Counted from the first letter of the stretch, positions 6,320 to 37,195 are shown. The stretch: 64,000 nucleotides of DNA from Escherichia coli (GCF_009931435.1 NZ_CP043414.1), one strand, 5' to 3'. Notes: generated by a model from the letters alone, not told the origin. Translations and numbers: made by a program.

Positions 6320-6353
6320 GCCCCGCCAGCTATAATCGCGGGGCTTCGTTTTT
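6320..6353 (+). terminator. Rho-independent terminator after ykgJ
   Basis: GC stem GCCCCGC / GCGGGGC with about 11-nt loop, followed by TTCGTTTTT, about 25 nt after the ykgJ stop. Confidence 0.5.
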
Positions 6354-6504
6354 CAGGGATAACAAAACCCGAAACTTCTTCCATCTGCCAGCAACAATGC
6401 CTCTTCCTCTATAGGGTTCTCCGGATCTACAGCATCCTGAAGTAGCGCGATGTACTCACTGGCTATCTGCATCAGAAAGTTAAAAACAATGTTTTTAACC
6501 TATA

Positions 6505-6531
6505 AAAATGGCGCTGTATTTGCGCCATTTT
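6505..6531. terminator. Bidirectional hairpin terminator between convergent ykgJ and yagU
   Basis: Perfect 10-bp inverted repeat AAAATGGCGC...GCGCCATTTT flanked by A-run and T-run; lies just downstream of the yagU stop (minus strand). Confidence 0.55.
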
Positions 6532-6545
6532 TATCATTCAATGCA

Positions 6546-7565: not shown

Positions 7566-8255
7566 ATGAGCAACCAAGGCGAATACCCCGAAGATAATCG
7601 GGTTGGGAAGCACGAGCCGCACGATTTTAGTTTGACCCGCCGCGATCTGATTAAAGTGAGCGCCGCAACGGCGGCGACCGCCGTGGTTTATCCTCATTCT
7701 ACGCTTGCGGCAAGCGTTCCGGCAGCTACACCCGCGCCAGAGATAATGCCCCTGACACTTAAGGTGAACGGCAAAACCGAGCAGCTTGAGGTGGATACCC
7801 GAACCACGCTACTGGACGCTTTGCGTGAAAATCTGCATCTGATCGGTACCAAGAAAGGTTGCGATCACGGACAGTGCGGAGCCTGTACCGTACTGGTCAA
7901 TGGTCGCAGGCTTAATGCCTGCCTGACGCTGGCAGTCATGCATCAGGGGGCCGAGATCACCACCATTGAAGGCCTGGGTTCACCAGAGAATCTTCACCCC
8001 ATGCAGGCGGCCTTTATCAAGCATGATGGCTTCCAGTGCGGCTACTGCACCTCCGGGCAAATTTGCTCATCAGTAGCGGTGCTAAAAGAGATTCAGGACG
8101 GCATTCCCAGTCACGTCACGGTCGATTTGGTTTCCCCTCCAGAAAGAACTGCCGATGAGATCCGTGAACGTATGAGCGGCAACATCTGTCGCTGTGGTGC
8201 ATACGCTAACATCCTTGCCGCCATTGAAGACGCTGCGGGGGAGATAAAATCATGA
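7566..8255 (+). CDS. paoA: PaoA, periplasmic aldehyde oxidoreductase 2Fe-2S subunit
   Basis: 229 aa; Tat-type signal ([19 protein letters not shown]); ferredoxin Cys clusters ([25 protein letters not shown]); SD GGAGG upstream. Confidence 0.9.
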
Positions 8256-9208
8256 AGGCGTTTACCTATGAACGTGTGAACACCCCTGCCGAGGCGGCAC
8301 TTAGCGCTCAGCGCGTACCCGGCGCAAAATTTATCGCTGGCGGGACCAATCTGCTGGACCTGATGAAGCTGGAAATTGAAACGCCAACCCACCTTATCGA
8401 TGTGAACGGGCTCGGGCTCGATAAGATTGAAGTGACCGACGCGGGTGGGCTGCGCATCGGCGCACTGGTACGGAACACCGACCTGGCGGCTCACGAGCGC
8501 GTGCGTCGTGATTACGCGGTACTCTCCCGCGCTCTGCTCGCTGGCGCGTCTGGTCAGTTACGTAATCAGGCAACCACCGCAGGTAATCTGCTCCAGCGCA
8601 CGCGCTGCCCCTATTTTTACGACACCAATCAGCCCTGCAATAAGCGCCTGCCCGGGAGCGGCTGCGCGGCACTTGAAGGCTTTAGCCGTCAGCACGCGGT
8701 GGTAGGCGTAAGCGAAGCCTGCATTGCCACCCATCCGAGCGATATGGCGGTCGCAATGCGGTTGCTGGATGCGGTGGTGGAAACCATCACGCCGGAGGGA
8801 AAAACTCGCAGTATCACACTGGCTGATTTTTATCACCCACCGGGGAAAACGCCGCACATTGAAACCGCCCTGCTTCCCGGTGAGCTTATCGTTGCGGTGA
8901 CGTTACCTCCGCCGCTCGGCGGAAAACATATCTACCGCAAGGTGCGCGATCGCGCCTCCTACGCCTTTGCCCTGGTATCGGTCGCGGCGATTATTCAGCC
9001 TGACGGCAGCGGGCGCGTCGCGCTGGGCGGAGTAGCACATAAGCCCTGGCGCATTGAGGCTGCGGATGCTCAGCTATCCCAGGGGGCGCAGGCCGTGTAT
9101 GACGCGCTGTTCGCCAGCGCCCATCCCACCGCTGAAAATACCTTTAAACTCCTGTTGGCGAAGCGAACGCTTGCCTCCGTACTGGCTGAAGCGAGGGCAC
9201 AGGCATGA
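8252..9208 (+). CDS. paoB: PaoB, FAD-binding subunit
   Basis: 318 aa; 4-nt start/stop overlap with paoA; recognised as YagS/PaoB. Confidence 0.9.
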
Positions 9209-11403
9209 AATTTGATAAACCCGCAGGGGAAAACCCGATCGATCAGCTGAAGGTTGTCGGTCGTCCCCATGACCGCATCGACGGACCGCTGAAAACTACC
9301 GGCACGGCACGCTACGCCTACGAATGGCATGAAGAAGCCCCCAACGCCGCCTATGGCTATATCGTCGGTTCCGCCATTGCCAAAGGACGCCTCACCGCCC
9401 TAGATACGGACGCCGCGCAAAAAGCGCCGGGCGTACTGGCTGTCATTACCGCCAGTAACGCTGGGGCACTCGGCAAAGGCGACAAAAACACCGCCAGGCT
9501 GTTAGGCGGCCCCACTATTGAGCACTATCATCAGGCCATTGCGCTGGTAGTGGCCGAGACCTTCGAACAGGCGCGAGCGGCGGCCTCGCTGGTGCAGGCG
9601 CACTATCGCCGTAATAAAGGAGCTTACTCCCTGGCGGACGAGAAACAGGCCGTCAGTCAGCCGCCGGAAGACACGCCCGATAAAAACGTTGGTGACTTTG
9701 ACGGGGCTTTCACCTCCGCTGCAGTGAAAATTGATGCTACATACACGACCCCGGACCAGAGCCATATGGCGATGGAGCCGCATGCCTCGATGGCCGTCTG
9801 GGATGGAAATAAGCTTACCCTCTGGACCTCAAATCAGATGATTGACTGGTGCCGCACCGATCTGGCAAAAACGCTGAAAGTGCCCGTGGAGAATGTGCGT
9901 ATTATCTCCCCGTATATCGGCGGAGGGTTTGGCGGCAAGCTATTCCTGAGAAGCGATGCGCTGCTGGCGGCCCTCGCCGCCCGTGCGGTGAAACGTCCGG
10001 TTAAAGTGATGCTCCCCCGCCCCACTATTCCCAATAACACCACGCACCGCCCCGCCACCCTTCAGCACCTGCGTATCGGTGCCGACCAGAGCGGGAAAAT
10101 CACCGCTATCTCACATGAAAGCTGGTCCGGAAACCTGCCCGGCGGCACGCCGGAAACGGCGGTACAGCAAAGCGAATTACTCTACGCAGGGGCAAACCGT
10201 CATACCGGCCTGCGGCTCGCCGCGCTTGATTTGCCGGAAGGGAACGCCATGCGTGCGCCCGGCGAAGCCCCCGGTCTGATGGCGCTCGAAATCGCGATCG
10301 ACGAACTGGCGGAAAAAGCGGGCATCGATCCCGTCGAGTTTCGCATCCTGAATGACACTCAGGTTGACCCCGCCGACCCGACGCGCCGCTTCTCTCGCCG
10401 TCAGCTTATCGAGTGCTTGCGCACCGGAGCGGATAAATTTGGCTGGAAGCAGCGCAACGCTACACCCGGACAGGTGCGCGACGGGGAGTGGCTAGTCGGC
10501 CACGGTGTTGCGGCGGGCTTTCGCAATAATCTGCTGGAAAAATCGGGTGCTCGGGTTCACCTCGAACAAAATGGCACCGTTACCGTAGAAACGGACATGA
10601 CCGACATTGGCACCGGCAGCTACACCATTCTGGCCCAGACGGCAGCGGAAATGCTTGGCGTACCGCTGGAGCAGGTTGCGGTTCACCTCGGCGATTCCAG
10701 TTTCCCGGTTTCTGCGGGTTCTGGTGGACAATGGGGCGCGAATACCTCCACCTCCGGCGTTTACGCCGCCTGTGTGAAACTTCGCGAAATGATTGCCTCG
10801 GCGGTCGGGTTTGATCCTGAGCAGTCGCAGTTTGCCGACGGCAAGATTACCAACGGTACCCGAAGCGCCACGCTACATGAGGCCACCGCAGGCGGCAGAC
10901 TGACAGCGGAAGAGAGCATTGAGTTCGGCACTCTCAGCAAGGAGTACCAGCAATCGACCTTTGCCGGGCATTTTGTGGAGGTCGGCGTGCATAGCGCGAC
11001 GGGAGAAGTTCGGGTCCGGCGTATGCTCGCCGTGTGCGCAGCGGGGCGCATTCTGAATCCGAAAACTGCACGCAGCCAGGTCATTGGCGCGATGACTATG
11101 GGCATGGGCGCGGCACTGATGGAGGAGCTGGCGGTAGATGACCGTTTGGGCTACTTCGTTAATCACGATATGGCGGGGTATGAGGTGCCGGTTCATGCGG
11201 ATATCCCAAAACAGGAGGTGATTTTCCTGGATGATACCGACCCCATCTCCTCCCCGATGAAGGCCAAAGGTGTCGGTGAGCTGGGCCTGTGCGGCGTGAG
11301 CGCGGCTATCGCCAACGCGGTGTATAACGCCACCGGTATTCGGGTACGGGATTATCCCATCACTCTGGATAAGCTGCTCGATAAACTGCCGGATGTGGTT
11401 TAA
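9205..11403 (+). CDS. paoC: PaoC, molybdopterin-binding catalytic subunit
   Basis: 732 aa; 4-nt overlap with paoB; xanthine dehydrogenase-family large subunit; recognised as YagR/PaoC. Confidence 0.9.
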
Positions 11404-11412
11404 GGAGGAACA

Positions 11413-12369
11413 ATGTCATACTCGCTTTTTGACAAAGACGAGCACTGGCATAAGCCAGAGCAGGCGTTTCTCACCGATGACCACCGGACCATTCTGCGCT
11501 TCGCCGTAGAGGCGCTAATGTCCGGTAAAGGAGCGGTGCTGGTGACGCTGGTGAAGATACGCGGCGGCGCGGCGCGCCCGCTCGGAGCACAGATGGTGGT
11601 GCGCGAAGATGGTCGTTACTGCGGTTTTGTCTCTGGCGGCTGCGTGGAGGCCGCTGCCGCTTTTGAAGCGCTGGAGGTGATGGGCTCAGGCTGCGATCGC
11701 GAAATTCGCTATGGCGAAGGTTCGCCGTGGTTTGACATCGTTCTGCCCTGCGGCGGTGGGATCACGCTGACGCTCCATAAACTACGCTCGGCACAGCCTC
11801 TGCTCGCCGTGCTGAACCGCCTGGAACAGAGAAAACCGGCGGGTCTGCGCTACGATCCGCAAGCTCAATCGCTGGTGTGCCTGCCCACGCAAACCCGAAC
11901 GGGCTGGAATCTCAATGGCTTTGAGGTGGGGTTCAGGCCATGCGTCAGGCTGATGATTTACGGACGTTCTCTTGAGGCGCAGGCAACCGCGAGTCTTGCA
12001 GCAGCCACAGGCTATGACAGCCATATCTTCGATATTTTTCCGGCCTCAGCCAGCGCTCAGATCGATACCGATACGGCGGTCATTTTGCTGTGCCATGATC
12101 TCAACCGGGAGCTGCCAGTGTTGCAGGCCGCGCGAGAGGCAAAACCCTTTTATCTCGGCGCATTGGGCAGCTATCGAACCCACACGTTACGTCTGCAAAA
12201 GCTCCACGAGCTAGGATGGTCCAGGGAGGAGACAGCGCAAATCCGGGCACCCATCGGGATATTCCCCAAAGCCCGGGATGCGCATACTCTGGCACTCTCC
12301 GTGCTGGCAGAAGTCGCTTCTGTACGTCTCCATCAGGAGGAGGATTCATGCCTGCCCCCGTCGTCGTGA
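11413..12369 (+). CDS. paoD: PaoD, XdhC-type molybdenum cofactor insertion chaperone
   Basis: 318 aa; last gene of paoABCD; recognised as YagQ/PaoD. Confidence 0.85.
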   Translation: MSYSLFDKDEHWHKPEQAFLTDDHRTILRFAVEALMSGKGAVLVTLVKIRGGAARPLGAQMVVREDGRYCGFVSGGCVEAAAAFEALEVMGSGCDREIRYGEGSPWFDIVLPCGGGITLTLHKLRSAQPLLAVLNRLEQRKPAGLRYDPQAQSLVCLPTQTRTGWNLNGFEVGFRPCVRLMIYGRSLEAQATASLAAATGYDSHIFDIFPASASAQIDTDTAVILLCHDLNRELPVLQAAREAKPFYLGALGSYRTHTLRLQKLHELGWSREETAQIRAPIGIFPKARDAHTLALSVLAEVASVRLHQEEDSCLPPSS

Positions 12370-12547
12370 TCCTTGCGGCCGGGCGTGGAGAGCGCTTTCT
12401 CGCCTCCGGGGGAAATACCATAAATTAAGAGAAAAATCTGCAGTAGCCGTTTTAGAAAATCACCTAAATCGTTTAAAAGAGCGCCCAACCCATAGTGGGC
12501 GCTCATCGCCTTGTGTAACTTATTCAGCAACGCGCGCCCTCGCCGGA

Positions 12548-13741
12548 CTAAAGCGCACCGGCCTTCTGGCGTGCGGTAACAAAGGTCAGTACGCCAGCGC
12601 AAAGGAGCAGCACGCTACTCATAGCAAACGTGCTCTGCCAGCCAAGGCGGTCAAACACAATGCCTCCTGCCGTTGATCCAAGGGCGATGGCGAGCTGAAT
12701 CACCGCGACCATGAGCCCGCCTCCGGCTTCGGCGTTGTCAGGCAACGTACGCGCAATCCATGTCCACCATCCGGTTGGCGCGGCGGTGGCCAGCATGCCC
12801 CAGAGTCCTAACAGCAGCGAGACCGTCCAGACGTGATGCCCGATAAGCATCAGACCGATAGCAATGACGGCCATAAGTCCGGGTATGGCCATCAGCGTGG
12901 GGTAGAATTTTCTGTTGAGAAATGCCGAAACAACCAGCGTGCCAATAAAACCGGCCACGCCGATAATCAGCAAAATCAACGACAAGCCTGAGGAATTAAC
13001 CCGTGTCACCGACTCCAGAAACGGGCGCACATAGGTGAATAGCGCAAACTGCCCCATGAAAAACAGGCCACAAGCTATCATGCCGACCACAACCATGCGG
13101 CGGCTAAATAAGCGGAATACCGTGCCAAATGACGTGTGGCTTTTATTCGCATCCATACTGGGCAGGCTGATGCACTGCCAGATAAAGGCGACAACCGCCA
13201 TGGGCACCAGGCACAAGAAAGCGCCTCGCCATCCGACCGTAGCCCCCAGATAGCTTCCCAGCGGCGCGGCCACGACCGTCGCCAGCGCATTACCGGCATT
13301 GAAAATCGCCAGCGCACGCGTGACCTGTTGCTGCGGCACCAGACGAATCGCCGTTGCCGCAGACATCGACCAGAATCCGCCAATAGCCACACCAATCATC
13401 GCACGACCGACCATATACATCAGATAACTGGAAGCCAGCGCAATAATAAGCCCCGAGACGGCCATCAGAACCGTCATCCCCAGCAGCAGGAACTTACGAT
13501 TCATCTTTCCAGCTAGCGTTGAAAGCGTCAGGCTGGTCAGAACCGCCAGCGCGCCGGAGATAGCAATCCCCTGCCCTGCCAGCCCCTCCGTCACGCCTAA
13601 ATCGCGGGTAATCGGCGTGAGCAGGCTGACGGGCATAAATTCAGAAGCAATCAGCACAAACACGCACAGGGTCATGGCAAAAATACCGCCCCAGTATGCG
13701 TGCTGATGATGAGGTGATGGTGTTTGGCTTAGTGTCGACAT
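12548..13741 (-). CDS. MFS-family transporter
   Basis: 397-aa ORF, about 12 hydrophobic helices, typical MFS composition; no specific ortholog recognised. A hairpin (about 12479-12503) followed by a T-run on the minus strand looks like its terminator. Confidence 0.75.
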   Translation of the reverse strand: MSTLSQTPSPHHQHAYWGGIFAMTLCVFVLIASEFMPVSLLTPITRDLGVTEGLAGQGIAISGALAVLTSLTLSTLAGKMNRKFLLLGMTVLMAVSGLIIALASSYLMYMVGRAMIGVAIGGFWSMSAATAIRLVPQQQVTRALAIFNAGNALATVVAAPLGSYLGATVGWRGAFLCLVPMAVVAFIWQCISLPSMDANKSHTSFGTVFRLFSRRMVVVGMIACGLFFMGQFALFTYVRPFLESVTRVNSSGLSLILLIIGVAGFIGTLVVSAFLNRKFYPTLMAIPGLMAVIAIGLMLIGHHVWTVSLLLGLWGMLATAAPTGWWTWIARTLPDNAEAGGGLMVAVIQLAIALGSTAGGIVFDRLGWQSTFAMSSVLLLCAGVLTFVTARQKAGAL

Positions 13742-13816
13742 AGTGAAATTTCACAAAGATCAGGATAAAAGCCACCGGCCATAGACCGGTGGCTTTGCAT
13801 CAATTCAGGAGAGGTT

Positions 13817-14965
13817 TTATTTCAGTTTGGTCTGGAAAAATTGTTCGAACTTCGCGAAAGGTATTTTTCCGGCCACGTTATCGTACAGGTCCACGTGATT
13901 TGCCCCTGGTACCACCACCAGCTCTTTGTCTTTACTGCCAACCGCCTTGTAAGCATCTTCAGCAAAATAGCGTGAATGCGCTTTCTCACCGGTCACAATC
14001 AGCGTCGGAATGGTGATTTCACTGGCGTAGCTCAACAGCGGCATATTCATAAATGACAGCGGCATCGTTGCCGTCCACGCCCCGGTAGAGTTAACGGAAC
14101 GTTCGTGGAAGCCGCGCGGCATGCGATAGTAGTCAAAGAACTCTTTCAGTACCGGATGAGGATTTGCCGGCAGCGTTTCTGGCAGAATACGCTCGCCCGC
14201 ACTGACCTTGCCGTTGCTGTCGACATTAATATCATGACCACCGTGAGCGAACGTTCCGCTCTGCGCATCCTTCCAGCGCTGTTCATTCAGATATTGCAGA
14301 ACAGCACGACGGTCGGCGGTAGAATAACGGTCTTTGCCATCCCCCACACCATGGCCCATCGCCCGGCTCATGTCATACATCACGCTGGTAGCTACCGCTT
14401 TAACGCGGGTATCCATCGCCGCGTCGTTCAGCGCCATGCCGCCCCAGCCACAAATACCGAGCAGCCCGATACGGTTGCGATCTACCTCTTTTTGCAGCCC
14501 TAAGAAATCCACCGCCGCGCTGAAATCTTCAGTGTTGATATCCGGTGAAGCGACGTTTCGCGGATAGCCGCCGCTTTCCCCGGTGTAAGAAGGATCGAAC
14601 GCCAGGGTAACAAACCCTCGTTCCGCCAGCGTCTGCGCATACAGGCCGCTGGATTGCTCTTTCACCGCGCCAAATGGCCCACTGACCGCAATCGCCGCCA
14701 GCTTGCGATCGCCACGGTCTTTAGGCAGGTAAAGATCGCCCACTAAGGTGATGCCATATCGGTTCGGGAACGAGACTTTACGGTGATCGACTTTCTGGCT
14801 CTCGGCGAACGTTTTATCCCATTTATCTGTCATGGACACAGGGGCATTAGGATTGGTTGAATCAGCATAACTCATTGTCGTGACTCCACTTAATGATGCG
14901 AAAAGCAGCATGGTCGGCATCGCGATTTTTAGCGTTCGGGTGAAGGCTTTCATAAAAATCCCCAT
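13817..14965 (-). CDS. Secreted alpha/beta-hydrolase-like protein (dienelactone-hydrolase-like, Cys in nucleophile position)
   Basis: Track ORF 13817-14974 begins with TTG; first ATG placed at 14965 (start uncertain). Signal peptide-like N-terminus; nucleophile-elbow-like GICGWGG with Cys rather than Ser. Confidence 0.65.
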   Translation of the reverse strand: MGIFMKAFTRTLKIAMPTMLLFASLSGVTTMSYADSTNPNAPVSMTDKWDKTFAESQKVDHRKVSFPNRYGITLVGDLYLPKDRGDRKLAAIAVSGPFGAVKEQSSGLYAQTLAERGFVTLAFDPSYTGESGGYPRNVASPDINTEDFSAAVDFLGLQKEVDRNRIGLLGICGWGGMALNDAAMDTRVKAVATSVMYDMSRAMGHGVGDGKDRYSTADRRAVLQYLNEQRWKDAQSGTFAHGGHDINVDSNGKVSAGERILPETLPANPHPVLKEFFDYYRMPRGFHERSVNSTGAWTATMPLSFMNMPLLSYASEITIPTLIVTGEKAHSRYFAEDAYKAVGSKDKELVVVPGANHVDLYDNVAGKIPFAKFEQFFQTKLK

Positions 14966-15139
14966 AAAAAACAACAGAGAGATACAGGTTTCCGACGGAC
15001 AACACTGCGGTGCTTTACTTTGATGGGGTCATTATAGTGAGCAGAATTAGTGCTGATTAGGGGGCGATTAATGCTAAGATTAATACCATATTGTTATAAA
15101 TTAATGCGGAGATTGCCGGCATGAAGGGGGGATGTTTCA

Positions 15140-16024
15140 ATGGCGAAAAGGGAGAACTACAACGAGCTGTACCTGTTTATGCAGGTGGTGCGGGAAGGCA
15201 GCTTTACCGCAGCGGCTCAGCGGCTGGGTCTTGCTCAGTCAGGAGTCAGCCGTTCTGTTCGCGAGCTTGAAGAAAGGCTCGGCGTCCAGCTGCTGGTGCG
15301 CACCACGCGTAAACTGTCGCTGACGCAAGCAGGCGAGCAGCTCTACCAGAAGACGGCATCTGGATTTGAAATGTTAGATCTTGGGCTTGCCACACTGGCG
15401 CACTATCGAGAGACGCCCTCCGGCACGGTGCGTATCAATGCCAGCCAGCACGCGATTGATAAATGCCTGCTGCCAAAGCTGGCGGTATTTAAACAGCGAT
15501 ATCCTGATATCCGGCTTGAACTGATAAATGAGAGCCGGTTCGTCGATATCATCGAGGAAAGATTCGATGCTGGTGTCCGCCTGGGGCCTGAAGTCGGCCA
15601 GGGTATGGTCGCGGTACGCATCACGCCCGATATGGAGATGGCAATTGTGGGGACTCCGGAACATTTTCGTCGCTATGGTTTTCCGCAAACCCCGGCGGAT
15701 TTAAAGGCGCATCCCTGTATCGCCTATCAGTTTGCCGACGGCAGCGTATACCAGTGGGAACTCAATCAGGATGATAAAAAAATCACTCATCGCCCTGAAG
15801 GGCAATGGGCCCTATCCGACAGCTATATGGAAGCAGAAGCCGCACGGCTGGGCCTCGGATTGGCCTATGTTCCTGTTGAACTGGTTGCGGATGATTTAGA
15901 ACACGGTAAGCTTATCAGAGTGTTGCAGCGTTACAGCCTGCGAATGGAGGGATTGTTTCTCTATTACCCTCATCGCAACGTCTCCCCCGCTCTGCGGATG
16001 GTCATTGATACATTGAAAATCTGA
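15140..16024 (+). CDS. LysR-family transcriptional regulator
   Basis: 294 aa; N-terminal HTH (FTAAAQRLGLAQSGVSRSVRELEERLGVQLL) and LysR substrate-binding domain; divergent from the hydrolase gene. Confidence 0.8.
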   Translation: MAKRENYNELYLFMQVVREGSFTAAAQRLGLAQSGVSRSVRELEERLGVQLLVRTTRKLSLTQAGEQLYQKTASGFEMLDLGLATLAHYRETPSGTVRINASQHAIDKCLLPKLAVFKQRYPDIRLELINESRFVDIIEERFDAGVRLGPEVGQGMVAVRITPDMEMAIVGTPEHFRRYGFPQTPADLKAHPCIAYQFADGSVYQWELNQDDKKITHRPEGQWALSDSYMEAEAARLGLGLAYVPVELVADDLEHGKLIRVLQRYSLRMEGLFLYYPHRNVSPALRMVIDTLKI

Positions 16025-16734
16025 ACGTTAACAACGACCGACTCTTCACTGTGCAATATTGTGTCAGGTAGTCACTCTGCGTTCAATTCCAGGGGCCGCT
16101 TTGAGCGAGAAAGAGCGGACTTATCTGTACAAGGGGACTATCCAGCAATGGAGATCACCCATAAGAAAAAAGTACCTGGCTCCCTCGACAACCTTCATCC
16201 GGGAATTTAGCCTCAATCAACATTTTTATATCTGTCAGGTTACTTCATTATGAAAACCGATCAATATCGTTGTTTTTGTTGCAATAGTAGAATACGCCTA
16301 TTTATTCCTCCATTTCTATTAATAACGGCCATAAACCGTTCACTTCACTGATATTTAAAATATGCATCCTTTTCCTGCTTTTCAAGTTGTTCAGCGGCGT
16401 AAGAAAACGTATTAAATATGAATTCGACGATTTAACCATTTCTGTCTGATTGGTAATCATCTGTGATTAATGCTGGTCTATTGATTACGCCAGCATTAAC
16501 CGCTTAGGGATGTATTCTTCCTGATCATATACATCCCTCGAAAAAGAGAGAAAATAAAACTGTGTCCAATATTACTCTACCACTCCAGACCGAAGTATCG
16601 GTAGAATTAGCAGAACGACTGGTACAATAGATTGGGATAGCGTCATTTGTCAGGTATTCCATTGCCTGACAAATGACAATTTTGAGTCAATAGACGTGCT
16701 TCTTGATCATGTCTTACAAATTATACCATGAACC

Positions 16735-17007
16735 TTATGAAGCATCATTTTTACTGACTGGTGTTAACTTTGCTATCATATAAACTCTGTTCTTAAAAAA
16801 CGCGCCCAGAATTTTATATGATTTCCCTTGTTTTTCTGCCTGTAAAGAAATTTCTTTTTCAGTGCTGTTAATGGTTGAACCGACGGCAGTAATCTTTTTG
16901 GCGACGCTACTGAATGATAATAAAGACAGTGTAACCACAACAATTAAAGAACAGATAGTATTCACGTTAATTCTCCTGACAATTGAGAGGGTGAGTTTTA
17001 TATACAT
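16735..17007 (-). CDS. Small secreted DUF1471-like (YdgH/BhsA/McbA-family) protein
   Basis: 90-aa ORF in an AT-rich stretch; signal-peptide-like N-terminus; mature part (KITAVGSTINSTEKEISLQAEKQGKSYKIL...YMIAKL) fits the DUF1471 pattern of small stress/biofilm proteins. No convincing SD. Confidence 0.4.
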   Translation of the reverse strand: MYIKLTLSIVRRINVNTICSLIVVVTLSLLSFSSVAKKITAVGSTINSTEKEISLQAEKQGKSYKILGAFFKNRVYMIAKLTPVSKNDAS

Positions 17008-17176
17008 AGGTATTAAACATGAGTCATATTTACTCCAAGAGAAAACACTCCTTCTGTAATTAAACCTTCATCTCCTTCGGGGTGAGCAATACATAATGCA
17101 TCTTGCTATGCAAAACAGGTGGATATCAATTTTCCTCCCGACCTATTTAATAAAACGTGAATATAAAAGTTATTCT

Positions 17177-17899
17177 TCAGTTTGCAGATGCAGTAGGTCT
17201 GATGGTAATTTCGGTTGTATCAACGCTTTCGGGAGATTCAATAATATGCCTTACAGCACGGGCAATATCCGCGGGTTGAAGTGCAACAGAACGGTAGGCG
17301 TTCATTGACTTCATGGTTTCCACATGGGTAATGGTTGAAGCCAGTTCACTTTCTACAACCCCAGGATTTACGCAGGTCACACGGATTTTCGAGCTTTCCT
17401 GCCGTAAGCCATCAGAAATAGCCCGTACTGCAAATTTTGATGCGCAATAGACTGCGCCTGTGGGCACAACAGAAAGGGCACCAATAGAACCAAGATTGAT
17501 TATCTGACCGGAACCCTGTGCTTCCATCACCGGAAGTACAGCGCCAATTCCCCAAAGTACGCCTTTGATATTCACGTCAATAGTGAGCTCCCATTCATTT
17601 TGTTTTCCTGCTGCAAGCGGTGAAAGCGGCATAACGCCCGCATTATTGATAAGAACATCAACTCGCCCCCAGCTATCCAGCGCTGCTTGCACGAAATCTG
17701 CCATGGACTGTCGGTCTGTGACATCCAACTCCCGCGCTTTAGCAATTCCTCCTGCGCGGCAGATTTCTTTTGCAATGGCTTCGATACGCTCAAGTCTGCG
17801 TGCTCCCAGTAAAACCTTTGCACCTGCCGTTCCCAGCTCTCTGGCAATACCTTCCCCAATACCACTTGATGCGCCGGTGATTAATATGACCTTATCCAT
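17177..17899 (-). CDS. Short-chain dehydrogenase/reductase (SDR)
   Basis: Track ORF starts at a TTG (17914); start placed at ATG 17899 (MDKVILITGASSGIGEG, classic TGxxxGxG NAD(P)-binding motif) with AAGGAG SD 7 nt upstream. Confidence 0.8.
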   Translation of the reverse strand: MDKVILITGASSGIGEGIARELGTAGAKVLLGARRLERIEAIAKEICRAGGIAKARELDVTDRQSMADFVQAALDSWGRVDVLINNAGVMPLSPLAAGKQNEWELTIDVNIKGVLWGIGAVLPVMEAQGSGQIINLGSIGALSVVPTGAVYCASKFAVRAISDGLRQESSKIRVTCVNPGVVESELASTITHVETMKSMNAYRSVALQPADIARAVRHIIESPESVDTTEITIRPTASAN

Positions 17900-17997
17900 T
17901 ACGTTCTCCTTCAAATGTGTTCGGAGAGAGAATAGAACTTTATGATTGGTTCCAGTATCCTGCTTTCAATGTACTCAATGGTTAGCGGCATTAAACA

Positions 17998-18897
17998 ATG
18001 AAAATCGATCTTAATCTTTTACCCATTTTTATCGCGGTAGCAGAAGAGAGTAATTTCAGTAAAGCCGCCGCACGACTGGGCGTTACCCGTTCAGCGGTCA
18101 GTCAGGGAATAAGACGTCTTGAAGATGCATTCGGGACAATGCTTGTAATGCGGACCACGCGCTCAGTTAATTTGACGGAAGCGGGAGAACGGCTGCATAA
18201 ATCGTTGTCATTACCTTTATCCGGTATTGAGGCAGCGTTCGAAGAGATGGTCTCTGACCATGTACCACGTGGACATCTCAGAATCGCGGTGACGTCGATA
18301 GCAGAAGAATTTCTTTCAGGTCCGCTAATCGCTTCGTTTGCAGCTGCCAATCCAGCCGTTACGCTTGATATTGTTGTCACGGATGAGGAATTCGATATCG
18401 TTGCCGCAGGTTACGATGCTGGCGTAAGGCTCGGAGAGGTCATTGAAAAAGACATGATTGCTGTTCCCCTTACCGGTAAGCAGCGTGAGATGGTCGTTGC
18501 CTCTCCCTCCTATCTCGCAGCCAACAGCACACCTGTTCATCCGCGCGAACTTGTGAATCATAAGTGTATCGGCTGGCGTCAGTCCCCGGAGGTTGCGCCT
18601 TATCGCTGGCCATTTGAAGAAAACGGTAGAGCTTTCGACCTTGCGATTGAACCGCAGATTACGACGAATGATCTGCGTCTGATGTTGAGGCTGGCTCTTG
18701 CCGGCGGAGGAATAACAATTGCCACTCAGGAAACGTTCAGGCCATATATTGAAAGCGGTAAGCTTGTATCGCTGCTTGATGACTTTCTTCCACAATTTCC
18801 GGGCTTCTATCTGTATTTCCCACAGCGTCGCAATATTGCACCAAAGCTCCGCGCCCTGATTGACCACGTCAAGGAATGGCGGCAGCAATTGGCTTAA
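17998..18897 (+). CDS. LysR-family transcriptional regulator
   Basis: 299 aa, HTH near N-terminus (FSKAAARLGVTRSAVSQGIRRLE); divergently transcribed from the SDR gene. Confidence 0.8.
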   Translation: MKIDLNLLPIFIAVAEESNFSKAAARLGVTRSAVSQGIRRLEDAFGTMLVMRTTRSVNLTEAGERLHKSLSLPLSGIEAAFEEMVSDHVPRGHLRIAVTSIAEEFLSGPLIASFAAANPAVTLDIVVTDEEFDIVAAGYDAGVRLGEVIEKDMIAVPLTGKQREMVVASPSYLAANSTPVHPRELVNHKCIGWRQSPEVAPYRWPFEENGRAFDLAIEPQITTNDLRLMLRLALAGGGITIATQETFRPYIESGKLVSLLDDFLPQFPGFYLYFPQRRNIAPKLRALIDHVKEWRQQLA

Positions 18898-19024
18898 ATG
18901 TCTGCACCTGCACTGCCTGATGTCAGAACAGTATTTTGAGAAATTGCCAGGGTTACAATGGCACAAATACGGCACAGGAGGAAAACGTGGTGTAATTGAA
19001 TGTGAGGTAACTTATTGATTTAAA

Positions 19025-19100
19025 TGGTGCCGATAATAGGAGTCGAACCTACGACCTTCGCATTACGAATGCGCTGCTCTACCAACTGAGCTATATCGGC
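19025..19100 (-). tRNA. thrW: tRNA-Thr (anticodon CGU)
   Basis: Reverse complement reads GCCGATATAGCTCAGTTGGTAGAGCAGCGCATTCGTAATGCGAAGGTCGTAGGTTCGACTCCTATTATCGGCACCA: 76 nt, cloverleaf arms, anticodon loop TTCGTAA, 3' CCA; downstream of proA as thrW is in E. coli. Confidence 0.9.
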
Positions 19101-19214
19101 CCTGAAAGGACATGTTCACGAGCGTGAATCACGGTGGACAAGGTTAAAACTAACCGGGCGATGCGTCAATGGCCTTGTGAATCAAATGGCTACTTTTGCA
19201 TCACCCGGTTTTAT

Positions 19215-20468
19215 TTATGCACGAATGGTGTAATCACCAATGCCGATCCACTTGTAGGTGGTCAGAGCTTCCAGCCCCATTGGGCCGCGCGCGTGGAGTT
19301 TTTGTGTGCTTACCGCAACTTCCGCACCCAGACCAAACTGGCCGCCGTCGGTAAACCGCGTAGAGGCGTTAACGTAAACAGCGGAGGAATCCACTTCGTT
19401 GACAAAACGCTGGGCATTACGCATATCGCGGGTCAGGATCGCATCGGAGTGTTGCGTACCGTGTTCACGAATATGGGCGATGGCATCGTCAAGATCGCTG
19501 ACGATTTTGACGTTCAAGTCTAATGACAGGAACTCATCGTCATACTCTTCGGCTTTAACAGCCACCACCTTCGCGGGGCCTGCCTGCAACTGCGCCAGCG
19601 CAGTTGCGTCAGCGTGTAATGTCACGCCGCTTTCCGCCATTTGCTTGCTTAATGCGGGCAGGAAGCTATCTGCGATGTTTTTATTTACCAGCAACGTTTC
19701 TACCGTATTACACGTGCTCGGGCGCTGAGTTTTCGCGTTGACAATCACTTTCAATGCTTCAGCGATCTCTGCACTTTCATCAACGTAAATATGGCATACG
19801 CCTATACCACCTGTGATTACCGGAATCGTCGACTGCTCGCGGCACAGTTTATGCAACCCAGCCCCGCCGCGTGGGATCAGCATGTCGATGTATTTATCCA
19901 TACGCAGCAGTTCACTGACCAGCGCACGGTCAGGATTATCAATCGCCTGCACGGCACCCGCCGGTAAACCGCAGGATTTCAGGGCGTCCTGAATCACCGC
20001 CACCGTTGCAGCGTTAGTGCGACAGGTTTCTTTGCCGCCACGCAGAATCACTGCATTACCGGTTTTCAGGCACAGCGAAGCGACATCAACCGTCACGTTC
20101 GGGCGCGCTTCATAAATCACGCCAATCACCCCCAGCGGCACGCGACGGCGTTCCAGGCGCAGGCCACTGTCCAGCACGCCACCATCAATCACCTGCCCCA
20201 CCGGATCGGCGAGGTTACACACCTGGCGCACATCATCGGCAATGCTTTTCAGCCGTGCGGGCGTCAGTGCCAGGCGGTCAAGCATCGCTTCGCTAAGGCC
20301 ATTGGCACGCGCGTCAGCAACATCCTGGGCGTTAGCATTGAGGATGCTTTCGCTTTGTGCTTCCAGTTCATCGGCGATTTTTTCCAGCACGCGATTTTTT
20401 TCGCGACTGGAGAGTTGCGCTAAATTATACGAGGCTTGCTTCGCGGCAATGCCCATTTGTTCCAGCAT
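19215..20468 (-). CDS. proA: ProA, gamma-glutamyl phosphate reductase
   Basis: 417 aa, recognised as E. coli ProA ([36 protein letters not shown]...). Confidence 0.95.
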
Positions 20469-20478
20469 CGGCTGCTCC

Positions 20479-21582
20479 TTAACGGGTAATCATATCATCA
20501 CGGTGAACGGCAACCGGGCCGTATTCATATCCCAGTATTGCATCAATTTCTTGCGAGTGGTGTCCGGCAATACGGCGTAATGCATCGCTGTTGTAACGAC
20601 TGACGCCGTGGGCGATATCGCGACCTTCGAGGTTGCAAATGCGAATGACTTCACCACGCGAGAAGTTGCCGGTTACGCTTTTAATGCCTTTCGGCAACAG
20701 GGAGCTGCCGCGTTCAAGAATGGCGGCGGTTGCCCCTTCATCTACCGTGATTTCACCCGCAGGTGGCGCACCGAAAATCCAACGTTTGCGGTTTTCAAGC
20801 GGAGTCGCCTGGGCATGGAACAGCGTACCGACGGAAATACCTTCCATCACATCACCAATGACACCCGGCTTACTGCCCGCGGCAATAATGGTGTCGATAC
20901 CCGCACGGCAAGCCACGTCAGCGGCCTGCAATTTAGTGCTCATGCCGCCGGTTCCAAGACCTGAAACGCTGTCACCGGCAATCGCGCGCAGTGCGTCATC
21001 AATGCCGTACACATCTTTAATCAGTTCTGCCTGCGGATTGCTACGCGGGTCAGCGGTATACAAACCTTTTTGATCGGTCAGCAACAACAGTTTATCGGCA
21101 CCTGCCAGAATCGCCGCCAGCGCCGAAAGGTTATCGTTATCGCCGACTTTAATCTCTGCAGTAGCGACAGCATCGTTCTCATTAATTACCGGGACAATGT
21201 TGTTATCGAGCAGCGCACGAAGGGTATCCCGCGCGTTAAGGAAGCGTTCACGGTCTTCCATATCAGCACGAGTTAGCAGCATCTGCCCGACGTGAATGCC
21301 ATAAATCGAAAACAGCTGTTCCCACAGTTGAATCAGTCGACTCTGCCCTACCGCCGCCAGAAGTTGTTTCGAGGCGATAGTCGCTGGCAGTTCCGGGTAA
21401 CCCAGGTGCTCACGTCCGGCGGCAATCGCCCCCGACGTCACAATTACAATCCGATGCCCGGCGGCATGTAGCTGCGCGCACTGGCGAACAAGTTCAACGA
21501 TATGGGCACGGTTCAGGCGGCGCGATCCGCCTGTTAGCACACTGGTGCCGAGTTTTACCACCAGCGTCTGGCTGTCACTCAT
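20479..21582 (-). CDS. proB: ProB, glutamate 5-kinase
   Basis: Track ORF 20479-21669; ProB is 367 aa starting [19 protein letters not shown], so start placed at in-frame ATG 21582. Confidence 0.95.
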
Positions 21583-21770
21583 GATTCTCTGCCATTCAAT
21601 TTTAGGGAAAATGATATCAAACGAACGTTTTAGCAGGACTGTCGCCGGTTGCCAACCATCTGCAAGCAAAGCATGGCGTTTTGTTGCGCGGGATCAGCAA
21701 GCGTAGCGGCAGTTGTTTACGCTTTTATTACAGATTTAATAAATTACCACATTTTAAGAATATCATTAAT

Positions 21771-26935: not shown

Positions 26936-26991
26936 TTTTTTGATTTGCTGCCGGATGGCGTTTGATCGTCTTCCGGCAGTTTCATCCTTTC

Positions 26992-27606
26992 TTATCCTTC
27001 GATAAAAGCCATCCCTGTAAACGTCCGTCGCGGGTTGCCACGTTCAATCTGGTGATGGAACATTCGCCGCTGCGATTTCAGCGCCGCGCTATTTTCCTGT
27101 TGCTGTTGCTCCAGCTTCCAGGCAATCAGCAATCGCGCCAGCCGTTTGTTGGCATGTTGGCTGCGCTCTGACTGAACCTTCACGCTAATCCCGGATGCCA
27201 GATGCGTGGCGCGTACCGCCGAGTCGGTTTTATTGACATGTTGACCGCCCGGCCCCGACGAACGCAGCGTCTCATAACGGATTGCATCCGATTGTTCCTG
27301 CTCATCAGCGGTAAAACGCCCAATGCCCAGAAACCAGTTTTTGCGCCCATGATGAGGCCGATACGGGCTTGGGCAAATCCACTGAATAGTGCCGCACCAA
27401 CTTTCGCTTAATGCCCATGCGTTATCGCCATCCAGAGAAATCAGCGCCGAACGCAGCGTGTCAGAGTAGCGGCCCGTTTCTGTTTCCAGCACCGTTACCG
27501 CGACGTCTTGTCGGGTAGCTTCTTTAATCAACCTGTCCAGCGCCTTTTTCACTGCGAGACAACATTCTTCCGGTCCCTGAGCTGAGGAGAGTTGCAGCAA
27601 GATCAT
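26992..27606 (-). CDS. prfH: PrfH, peptide chain release factor homolog (RF-H), apparently intact
   Basis: Track ORF 26992-27690; start set at in-frame ATG 27606 giving 204 aa ([21 protein letters not shown]...); contains GGQ motif ([17 protein letters not shown]); ATGA start/stop overlap with upstream rtcB-like gene. Confidence 0.8.
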
Positions 27607-37049: not shown

Positions 37050-37195
37050 TTTTCAGGTCGGATGCGGCGTGAATGCATTATTCGGCCTACGGTTCGGGTA
37101 CAGATTTGTAGGCATGATAAGACGCGTCAGCGTCGCATCAGGCATCAGCGCACAAGTGCCGGATGCGGCGTAAACGCCTTATCCAGCCTACGCCA
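37050..37195. repeat. REP/BIME cluster (three REP palindromes)
   Basis: Three copies of the REP motif (GTCGGATGCGGCGTGAATGCATTATTCGGCCTAC; GTAGGCATGATAAGACGCGTCAGCGTCGCATCAGGC; GCCGGATGCGGCGTAAACGCCTTATCCAGCCTAC) in alternating orientation between yafJ and gmhA. Confidence 0.65.

Follow-up and report, generated by a model that had tools for sequence, protein, structure and literature searches.

The DNA between paoD and proA in this Escherichia coli strain is best read as two ordinary allelic states side by side, an empty attachment site (attB) at the tRNA gene thrW and an undeleted block of genes between paoD and thrW, and we give this reading a probability of about 90%. The analysis was made on a 64-kb stretch of the genome, called here the window. 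The initial annotation had left two options for the locus, that the site is unoccupied or that another kind of accessory segment is present; the former holds, whereas the latter gives way to a block that is variable, yet lies outside the elements carried at thrW and represents the undeleted backbone. Judged from the sequence, the block varies within E. coli but was not brought there by integration at thrW. The combination of an empty thrW and an undeleted block is ordinary, already annotated strain variation and belongs to known biology.

The only tRNA gene that ARAGORN finds in the whole window is a minus-strand tRNA-Thr(CGT), at 19025-19100. This gene, thrW or tRNA-Thr(CGU), scores 71.8 bits in Rfam. 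Over all 76 nt, with the CCA, it is identical to the thrW of four other E. coli loci, which bears out the earlier view that it is intact. thrW is familiar as a hotspot of integration (PMC7545054). Integrases of the CP4-6, SfV/SfI and P22 types use its 3' 46-49 nt (19025-19070/19073) as attB homology, and ptwF, the attR copy of K-12, covers 19025-19073. Homology to attP was found in 108 phage records, with every match ending at 19070, and the core agrees with the attP sequences of phages that are known to use thrW: the identity is 100% over 64 nt for SfV, 98% over 56 nt for the attP core of P22 and 93-94% over 111 nt for mEp043/HK446 (CP4-6 type). The intact tRNA gene directly abuts its native downstream flank, as in other genomes with an empty site, because nothing has integrated there, and the window from 18559 to 21700 aligns to strain FDAARGOS_1249, which has an empty thrW, in one unbroken blast alignment across attB. 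An empty thrW junction, scored as at least 80% coverage of a 301-bp probe that crosses the site, is present in 947 of the 5,426 complete E. coli genomes, this and the genome counts below being megablast coverage thresholds and not curated per-genome alignments. Here thrW is an unoccupied attachment site for phages and islands, whose 3' end provides the homology through which several tyrosine-integrase elements cross over. These are CP4-6-type lambdoid phages, SfV/SfI/SfX, P22-like phages, P4-like satellites and the Vat island, and the source strain would thus keep an intact predicted landing site for elements of the SfV, P22, CP4-6 and P4 types.

Traces of an earlier integration were not found. 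No integrase domain was detected with Pfam in any block ORF of at least 85 aa, and K-12 IntF gave no tblastn match better than E = 2 against the whole window. The initial annotation had proposed a search for direct repeats of the tRNA 3' end. With up to three mismatches allowed, the 3' 25-mer and 18-mer of thrW each occur a single time in the 64 kb, with no second copy; the tRNA gene plus 40 nt gave only chance 9-13-mers and no att duplication in blastn-short, and a general repeat finder returned chance matches only and no att remnants. Direct repeats of the attL/attR kind that border a prophage or island at thrW are therefore absent from the window, and the gene adjoining the 3' end of the tRNA is a LysR-type gene (LysR2) and not a tyrosine integrase. 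A thrW element of occupied genomes would fill the interval from the tRNA to the conserved flank; the block does not, since in K-12 and O157:H7 its position is beyond attR. The earlier statement that no prophage is integrated at thrW thus agrees with the lack of an integrase and an att repeat and with the unbroken alignment to empty-site genomes.

To the left of the block lies the conserved paoD (11413-12369, plus strand), a 318-aa ORF annotated as paoD at the same coordinates in the closest collinear genome, and the conserved right flank is proA (19215-20468, minus strand), a 417-aa ORF named according to the annotation of collinear genomes. The stop codon of paoD and the 3' end of the tRNA gene are 6,655 bp apart, close to the 6.5 kb first estimated, and the genes originally listed (MFS transporter, hydrolase, LysR, small ORF, SDR and LysR) are all present in that order. 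The composition profile divides the block into three parts with GC contents of about 56%, 36% and 49%, and the block is a mosaic of a first module, an AT-rich spacer and a second module. Both modules are found in other Enterobacterales as self-contained cassettes. A scan of the block for promoters and terminators gave counts no different from those of shuffled sequence.

Module 1 (12531-16109) is a cassette of a LysR regulator, an alpha/beta hydrolase with a Cys nucleophile and an MFS transporter, and its span is set by homology to Kluyvera genomosp. 1, in which exactly 12531-16109 is matched at 91.8% nucleotide identity between unrelated flanks. The transporter (12548-13741, minus strand; Pfam MFS_1, E = 1e-37) is NepI-like (DHA1 type); NepI is its best NCBIfam match with 297 bits, under the 584-bit cut-off, and in RefSeq the orthologue starts at the equivalent of 13675. 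The hydrolase (13817-14974, minus strand) belongs to the PA2218/YcjY family according to its PDB homologues (2HDW, PA2218, E = 8.6e-125; 5XB6, YcjY, E = 5e-44) and its conserved Cys and His. Its nucleophile elbow, GICGWGG, occupies residues 173-179, and Cys175 and His360 are invariant in 83 of 83 homologues, so that the label of a Cys-type hydrolase was well chosen; the G-x-Cys-x-G elbow and the conserved His are those of the Cys-nucleophile, dienelactone-hydrolase-like family. The N-terminus (MKAFTRTLKIAMPTMLLFASLSGVTTMSYA, followed by D) is probably a Sec signal peptide. A literature search on PA2218, YcjY and 2HDW found no functional study. Among the matches listed, relatives with 50-66% identity and the invariant Cys-His pair occur in Proteobacteria, Bacteroidota, Campylobacterota, Firmicutes, Melainabacteria, Elusimicrobia and Verrucomicrobia, with many of the hosts gut-associated.

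LysR1 (15140-16024, plus strand) is divergent from the hydrolase-MFS pair. Like LysR2, it has an N-terminal HTH_1 and a C-terminal LysR_substrate domain in Pfam, and its closest NCBIfam match is YafC, under the cut-off. The divergent LysR1/hydrolase pair is kept in at least 10 genera, and the LysR-hydrolase(-MFS) arrangement is found also in Enterobacter, Hafnia, Aeromonas, Psychrobacter and others. The arrangement of the genes and their domains suggest that LysR1 controls the hydrolase and the MFS transporter in response to a small molecule and that the hydrolase/exporter unit may handle an ester, lactone or thioester compound. It is a rather speculative and, in our estimate, unlikely extension that the LysR/exported Cys-hydrolase/MFS cassette is a horizontally shared small-molecule unit and that its losses in E. 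coli reflect niche-specific selection and not neutral decay.

The AT-rich spacer contains a ykgR-like 3' fragment with adjoining sequence (16254-16528, plus strand), recognised by its identity to the ykgR / ykgO-ykgL region of EcN, which is 88.8% over 16254-16387 and 74.5% over 16389-16528. Downstream of an in-frame stop the translation of the fragment ends in ...PINIVVFVAIVEYAYLFLHFY and a terminal stop, and a collinear genome in RefSeq carries a ykgR pseudogene at 16254-16322. Together with its adjoining sequence the fragment is an old repeat, of which the ykgR locus is the true copy. A scan for terminator-like structures found a hairpin with a perfect 15-bp stem at 16642-16677 (plus strand). 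The 90-aa ORF that follows (16735-17007, minus strand; hypothetical in RefSeq) has a signal-peptide-like N-terminus. It had been called DUF1471-like, a label that Pfam does not support: no family was found at E <= 0.01, and at E <= 10 there were two unrelated sub-threshold matches and still no DUF1471. NCBIfam gave a faint match to BhsA (E = 0.002, 18.5 bits, with the cut-off at 90), and membership in DUF1471/BhsA was rejected at the family-profile threshold. The ORF was also rejected as a paralogue of YkgL, which blastp did not match. A conserved 76-aa version of it lies on a metagenomic contig, L092.

Module 2 (17128-18907) is a divergent pair, a classical short-chain dehydrogenase/reductase (SDR; 17177-17914, minus strand; Pfam adh_short, E = 6.7e-55) and LysR2 (17998-18897, plus strand), the full-length form of the gene known as yagP. 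Enterobacter cloacae and Pantoea ananatis have 85% nucleotide identity to the window over exactly 17128-18907, and there the LysR2/SDR geometry is identical although the contexts are unrelated. Full-length LysR2 orthologues of 299 aa are present in E. coli, Enterobacter and Pantoea. As in module 1, the order and domains of the genes suggest that LysR2 may control the divergent SDR in response to a small molecule and that the SDR unit would handle a carbonyl or alcohol compound. On contig L092 module 2 adjoins the thrW att without module 1 or pao alongside, and the block was therefore possibly assembled in steps, which makes it ancestral only relative to the K-12 state.

The alignment to K-12 and other E. 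coli that the initial annotation had also called for gave a match in one piece across attB to genomes with an empty site, with 12424-18563 missing from K-12. Genomes of the K-12 type have one identical 6,140 bp deletion, equivalent to 12424-18563, between two CATAA pentamers. The left copy (12419-12423) was placed by the alignments to K-12 DH1 and FDAARGOS_1249, in both of which homology stops at 12423, and the right copy (18559-18563) lies inside LysR2. The junction ...GAAATACC-CATAA-GTGTATCGG... is base-identical in K-12 DH1 and the unrelated FDAARGOS_1249, and it is present in 2,683 of the 5,426 complete genomes. The K-12 protein annotated as a LysR substrate-binding domain-containing protein, missing N-terminus, aligns to 18559-18897; yagP is the final 339 bp of LysR2 (112 codons), with the HTH half gone. 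Since yagP is without the HTH half and full-length 299-aa orthologues exist elsewhere, the direction of change is deletion, and the two pentamers at the junction indicate microhomology-mediated illegitimate recombination. It is likely that one 6,140 bp deletion between the CATAA pentamers accounts for the loss of the region from about half of the sequenced E. coli, K-12 and B among them; it would have spared only the last 339 bp of LysR2 as the pseudogene yagP. As yagP of K-12 is the remnant of LysR2 after the deletion, the window has the undeleted backbone form and not an alternative island.

The occupied genomes place the block in the same way. The earlier statement that CP4-6 sits at thrW in K-12 is correct: intF and CP4-6 begin directly past the yagP-att junction, and the element that comes after LysR2 in O157:H7 is P4-like and has a primase-helicase. 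Both elements occupy the gap from thrW to LysR2/yagP and therefore leave the block outside. Its identity to O157:H7, 97.3-98.0%, resembles that of the flanking paoCD (97.7%), which argues that the block diverged together with the backbone. At least 80% of the block is present in 424 of the 5,426 complete E. coli genomes by megablast coverage, and full-length LysR2 and an empty thrW are combined in 38. Independent decay alleles are an internal SDR/LysR2 deletion in PS10-3 and a group II intron with IS629 in E. coli C, and further partial forms occur in two other matches (H4 and H5). A search of genome contigs with the hydrolase gave no other Escherichia species among the matches listed; with about a quarter of the protein hits bearing names, this is no more than suggestive, within those named matches, that other Escherichia species lack the cassettes. 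A Flag-2 lateral flagellar cluster was rejected as a feature of the window, which has the fhiA remnant as in K-12, unlike the closest genome.

Other histories would account for the locus with far lower probability. That the block is a degraded island, once integrated at thrW and since bereft of integrase and att repeat, is very unlikely, even if thrW is an integration hotspot (PMC7545054), the GC content is mixed with one stretch at 36%, only about 8% of the complete genomes have the block and its cassettes are found in other genera. There is no att repeat beyond the chance-level 9-13-mers and no similarity to an integrase; the genuine thrW elements, in K-12 as in O157:H7, have gone in on the thrW side of LysR2, with the block past attR; the thrW-LysR2 junction is unchanged in genomes with or without the block; and the block and paoCD diverge at an equal rate. 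Contig L092, with module 2 adjoining the thrW att, also hints otherwise.

Hardly any credence can be given to the opposite direction of change, in which the short paoD-yagP-thrW form is ancestral and the 6.1 kb were recently gained here by horizontal transfer. An insertion would have to restore a 299-aa LysR exactly from a 112-codon fragment, complete LysR2 orthologues are present in other genera, and the junction of the short form, inside an ORF at a 5-bp microhomology, is a deletion signature. The 92% nucleotide identity of module 1 to Kluyvera genomosp. 1 and the far commoner short form (2,683 vs 424 genomes) would fit a gain, but the block alleles of distant E. coli lineages are 2-3% apart, as is the backbone. 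An artefact of assembly or of the window, such as a collapsed prophage, has a close to negligible chance. Nothing specific points to it beyond the lack of a complete E. coli genome above about 98.8% identity to the window, whereas positions 1-26937 are collinear with strain MFDS1019527 with single-base indels only, and an empty thrW with a full LysR2 is common to the 38 complete genomes.

An empty attB beside an undeleted block remains the preferred reading, of practical use for annotation and typing. It tells backbone DNA apart from true thrW-borne islands and accounts for yagP, a pseudogene in K-12, as the leftover of a defined 6,140 bp deletion; no mechanism is understood differently through the paoD-thrW result.

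Compared with known loci, the window shares with the thrW/CP4-6/ptwF/yagP region of K-12 the paoABCD...thrW-proAB position, the tRNA gene and the 3' end of LysR2 (98.2% identical). In contrast, K-12 has CP4-6 between thrW and the ptwF-yagP junction and is missing 12424-18563, while the window has no prophage and the full 6.1 kb. In E. coli B, thrW and yagP are annotated as adjacent (PMC5809092), and therefore no prophage lies between them there. Like the window, the E. coli B / FDAARGOS_1249 type has an unoccupied attB, and its tRNA and downstream flank are identical; it differs by the 6,140 bp deletion, which the window does not have. The hydrolase is a close homologue of PA2218 (2HDW) and YcjY (5XB6) with the same GICGWGG elbow. 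O157:H7 and O145:H28 share the six-gene block in the same order at 97% identity; O157:H7 differs in its P4-like element at thrW, which is lacking in the window, and O145:H28 strains share with it the empty thrW beside a full-length LysR2.

The thrW locus in the window is an unoccupied attachment site, and the six genes that separate it from paoD are a deletion-prone stretch of the E. coli backbone. The tRNA gene, tRNA-Thr(CGU), lies at 19025-19100 on the minus strand, is the sole tRNA gene in the window (Rfam 71.8 bits), and its 76 nt are the same sequence in four other E. coli loci compared. It is flanked by proA and proB beyond it (19215-21669, minus) and, before the block, by paoBCD (8252-12369, plus), which is the paoABCD ... 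thrW-proAB neighbourhood of K-12 in the opposite reading direction. The block holds an MFS transporter (12548-13741, minus; top NCBIfam match NepI, under the cut-off), an alpha/beta hydrolase homologous to PA2218 and YcjY (13817-14974, minus), a first LysR regulator (LysR1, 15140-16024, plus), a 90-aa ORF (16735-17007, minus), a classical SDR (17177-17914, minus) and a second regulator (LysR2, 17998-18897, plus). Between LysR1 and the SDR is a spacer of approximately 36% GC, which carries the 90-aa ORF and a ykgR-like fragment. The ORFs and domain matches agree with the gene list in the initial annotation, and family profile searches gave no support for its naming of the 90-aa ORF as DUF1471-like. 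All genes of the block are already annotated in public genomes.

It had been proposed that thrW is intact and without an integrated prophage, and this is what we found: the tRNA is complete, none of the block's ORFs of 85 aa or longer has an integrase domain, and the best tblastn match to K-12 IntF was no better than E = 2. The search for att direct repeats, named beforehand as the test, was run with the last 25 and the last 18 nt of thrW, neither of which has a second copy in the 64 kb with up to 3 mismatches allowed, and with blastn-short using the tRNA plus 40 nt, which returned chance 9-13-mers and nothing more; a general repeat search over 12000-19400 detected no repeat bounding the block. 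A single alignment at 18559-21700 runs unbroken across the site against FDAARGOS_1249, an E. coli with an empty thrW in which a LysR remnant directly adjoins the tRNA gene. Thus, of the two readings offered earlier, the unoccupied site is the right one; the block is the undeleted yagP region and not an alternative island. An empty thrW was detected in 947 of 5,426 complete E. coli genomes (~17%; at least 80% coverage of a 301-bp probe with the 3' end of the tRNA at its centre), a count which, like the others here, depends on the megablast coverage threshold.

Homology to the site was found in 108 phage records, as attP regions with a shared end point in the tRNA at window position 19070. The attP of SfV is identical over 64 nt (100%), that of SfI matches at 98% over 64 nt and those of P22-like phages at 98% over 56 nt, while mEp043, HK446 and mEpX2, the sites of which are annotated as CP4-6-type attachment sites, match at 93-94% over 111 nt. 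The attB is intact and, judged by these alignments, matches the phage attP cores, and it is plausible that thrW in the window could serve as a target for known elements.

The window region 12424-18563 is missing from both K-12 DH1 and FDAARGOS_1249, and the junctions of the two match base for base (GAAATACC-CATAA-GTGTATCGG). In the window CATAA is present at both ends of the missing stretch (12419-12423 and 18559-18563), and the paoD stop and the 3' end of the tRNA are 6,655 bp apart, compared to 515 bp in the deleted form, a net difference of 6,140 bp. K-12 retains the last 339 bp of LysR2, named in RefSeq as 'LysR substrate-binding domain-containing protein, missing N-terminus', which is the pseudogene yagP of the K-12 annotation. 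As full-length LysR2 orthologues of 299 aa are found in E. coli, Enterobacter and Pantoea, and the junction falls at a microhomology within the ORF, the change was a deletion and the window has the undeleted state. The K-12 junction was detected in 2,683 of the 5,426 genomes (341-bp probe, coverage at least 80%), and the block was at least 80% present in 424, including O157:H7, O145:H28 and E. coli C, where it is interrupted by a group II intron and IS629. Full-length LysR2 together with an empty thrW, as in the window, is found in 38 genomes (0.7%), mostly O145:H28, the rest being scattered animal and human isolates. An internal deletion in PS10-3, fusing a truncated SDR to a truncated LysR2, and the partial forms of the block in matches H4 and H5 are further independent lesions. 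A probe for the paoD-yagP junction matched 3,603 of the 5,426 genomes, leaving about a third without a match.

Identity between the window and O157:H7 is 97.3-98.0% in the block and 97.7% in paoCD; the block has diverged alongside the backbone, indicating no recent acquisition by the window lineage. None of the complete E. coli genomes searched is more than ~98.8% identical to the window, which places the source lineage outside them. The block is composite in origin. The LysR1/hydrolase/MFS cassette (module 1, 12531-16109) matches Kluyvera genomosp. 1 with 91.8% nucleotide identity, the match covering exactly these three genes and the flanks there being unrelated; the hydrolase homology to Kluyvera spans residues 1-385. 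Among the matches listed, the LysR-hydrolase pair is present in Enterobacter, Hafnia, Aeromonas, Psychrobacter and Pasteurellaceae, often with an MFS gene, and the hydrolase-MFS linkage in Luteimonas, Pseudoalteromonas, Microvirga and Sphingomonas. The divergent SDR/LysR2 pair (module 2, 17128-18907) shares 85% identity with E. cloacae and P. ananatis, where the gene geometry is the same and the neighbours differ.

The spacer holds a ykgR 3' fragment, and 16254-16528 is an old direct repeat of the true ykgR / ykgO-ykgL region, to which its two parts are 88.8% and 74.5% identical. That region is located on the far side of ecp, upstream of where the window begins, and the ykgMO genes are missing from the window copy. 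The spacer also contains a perfect 15-bp-stem hairpin at 16642-16677 (GTCATTTGTCAGGTA...TACCTGACAAATGAC type) followed by AATTTTGAGT. Window 16254-19041 has an 88% identical counterpart in a metagenomic contig, L092, which has the order flavin oxidoreductase, intact ykgR, 76-aa ORF, SDR, LysR2, att and P4-like element, with a single ykgR and no ecp, pao or module 1 between it and the thrW att; not one E. coli genome among the 5,426 has this order. This one contig suggests that module 2 has been beside thrW longer than module 1. Two routes would account for the difference: a gain of about 20 kb (ykgL-ecp-yagU-pao-module 1) in E. coli, or its loss from the L092 lineage via recombination between the ykgR repeats.

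The label of Cys-type hydrolase was correct: the protein has GICGWGG as its nucleophile elbow, and Cys175 and His360 are conserved without exception in the 83 homologues compared. The protein is closely homologous to PA2218 (PDB 2HDW, E = 8.6e-125) and E. coli YcjY (5XB6), and the family, with this Cys-His pair invariant, is found at 50-66% identity across many phyla, including many gut taxa, among the matches listed; no functional study of PA2218 or YcjY was found in the literature searched. The N-terminus of the hydrolase is signal-peptide-like, and the enzyme is therefore probably periplasmic in action. In RefSeq the E. coli orthologue begins at the position corresponding to 14875, and with that start the predicted signal peptide would be lost. 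Each LysR would control its divergent partner genes on a small-molecule cue, the NepI-like transporter may move the substrate or product of the hydrolase, and a carbonyl or alcohol compound is the probable redox substrate of the SDR unit.

Compared to MFDS1019527, the closest complete genome, identity is 99.8-100% in paoCD and the spacer between paoD and the MFS gene and 99.5% in module 2, but only 97.7% in module 1 and 97.9% in proAB; this uneven identity marks the thrW surroundings as an apparent recombination mosaic. Against FDAARGOS_1249, proAB is ~95% identical. After pepD (26937-27000) the window is without ~830 bp of MFDS1019527 (a hypothetical gene and a metal-dependent hydrolase gene), and from 31400 the Flag-2 lateral flagellar cluster of that genome is absent and the window has the K-12-like state with an fhiA remnant, past which yafL, fadE and an RHS element reach at most ~94-95% identity to any complete genome. 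Rfam gathering-score matches were obtained for IS009 (6340-6540, minus, 196 bits), between ykgJ and yagU, and naRNA4/CssrE (37111-37188, minus, 76 bits). Upstream of the true ykgR, E. coli Nissle carries a LysR, an alpha/beta hydrolase and an NADH-flavin oxidoreductase, of which K-12 has fragments alone, beside IS3 and an inverse-autotransporter pseudogene. Together they form a second LysR-plus-enzyme cluster in decay, ~20 kb from the block.

The thrW gene is listed as one of the sites at which islands integrate most often in E. coli (PMC7545054). The hotspot and the CP4-6/ptwF structure are already well documented. In GN06667, a B2 ExPEC, a Vat island is at thrW and paoABCD and yagP are wholly missing; the integrase of this autotransporter island is degraded and yagU adjoins its far end. 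In K-12 DH1, paoD and the LysR fragment are followed by 49 nt copied from the 3' end of thrW (corresponding to window 19025-19073), which form the ptwF attR, and then by intF and CP4-6. O157:H7 has the full six-gene block, beyond which come 17 nt of tRNA homology and then a P4-like element carrying a primase-helicase. As the mobile element lies between thrW and LysR2 in both, attR separates it from the block, which is on the chromosomal side and is not a thrW-borne element.
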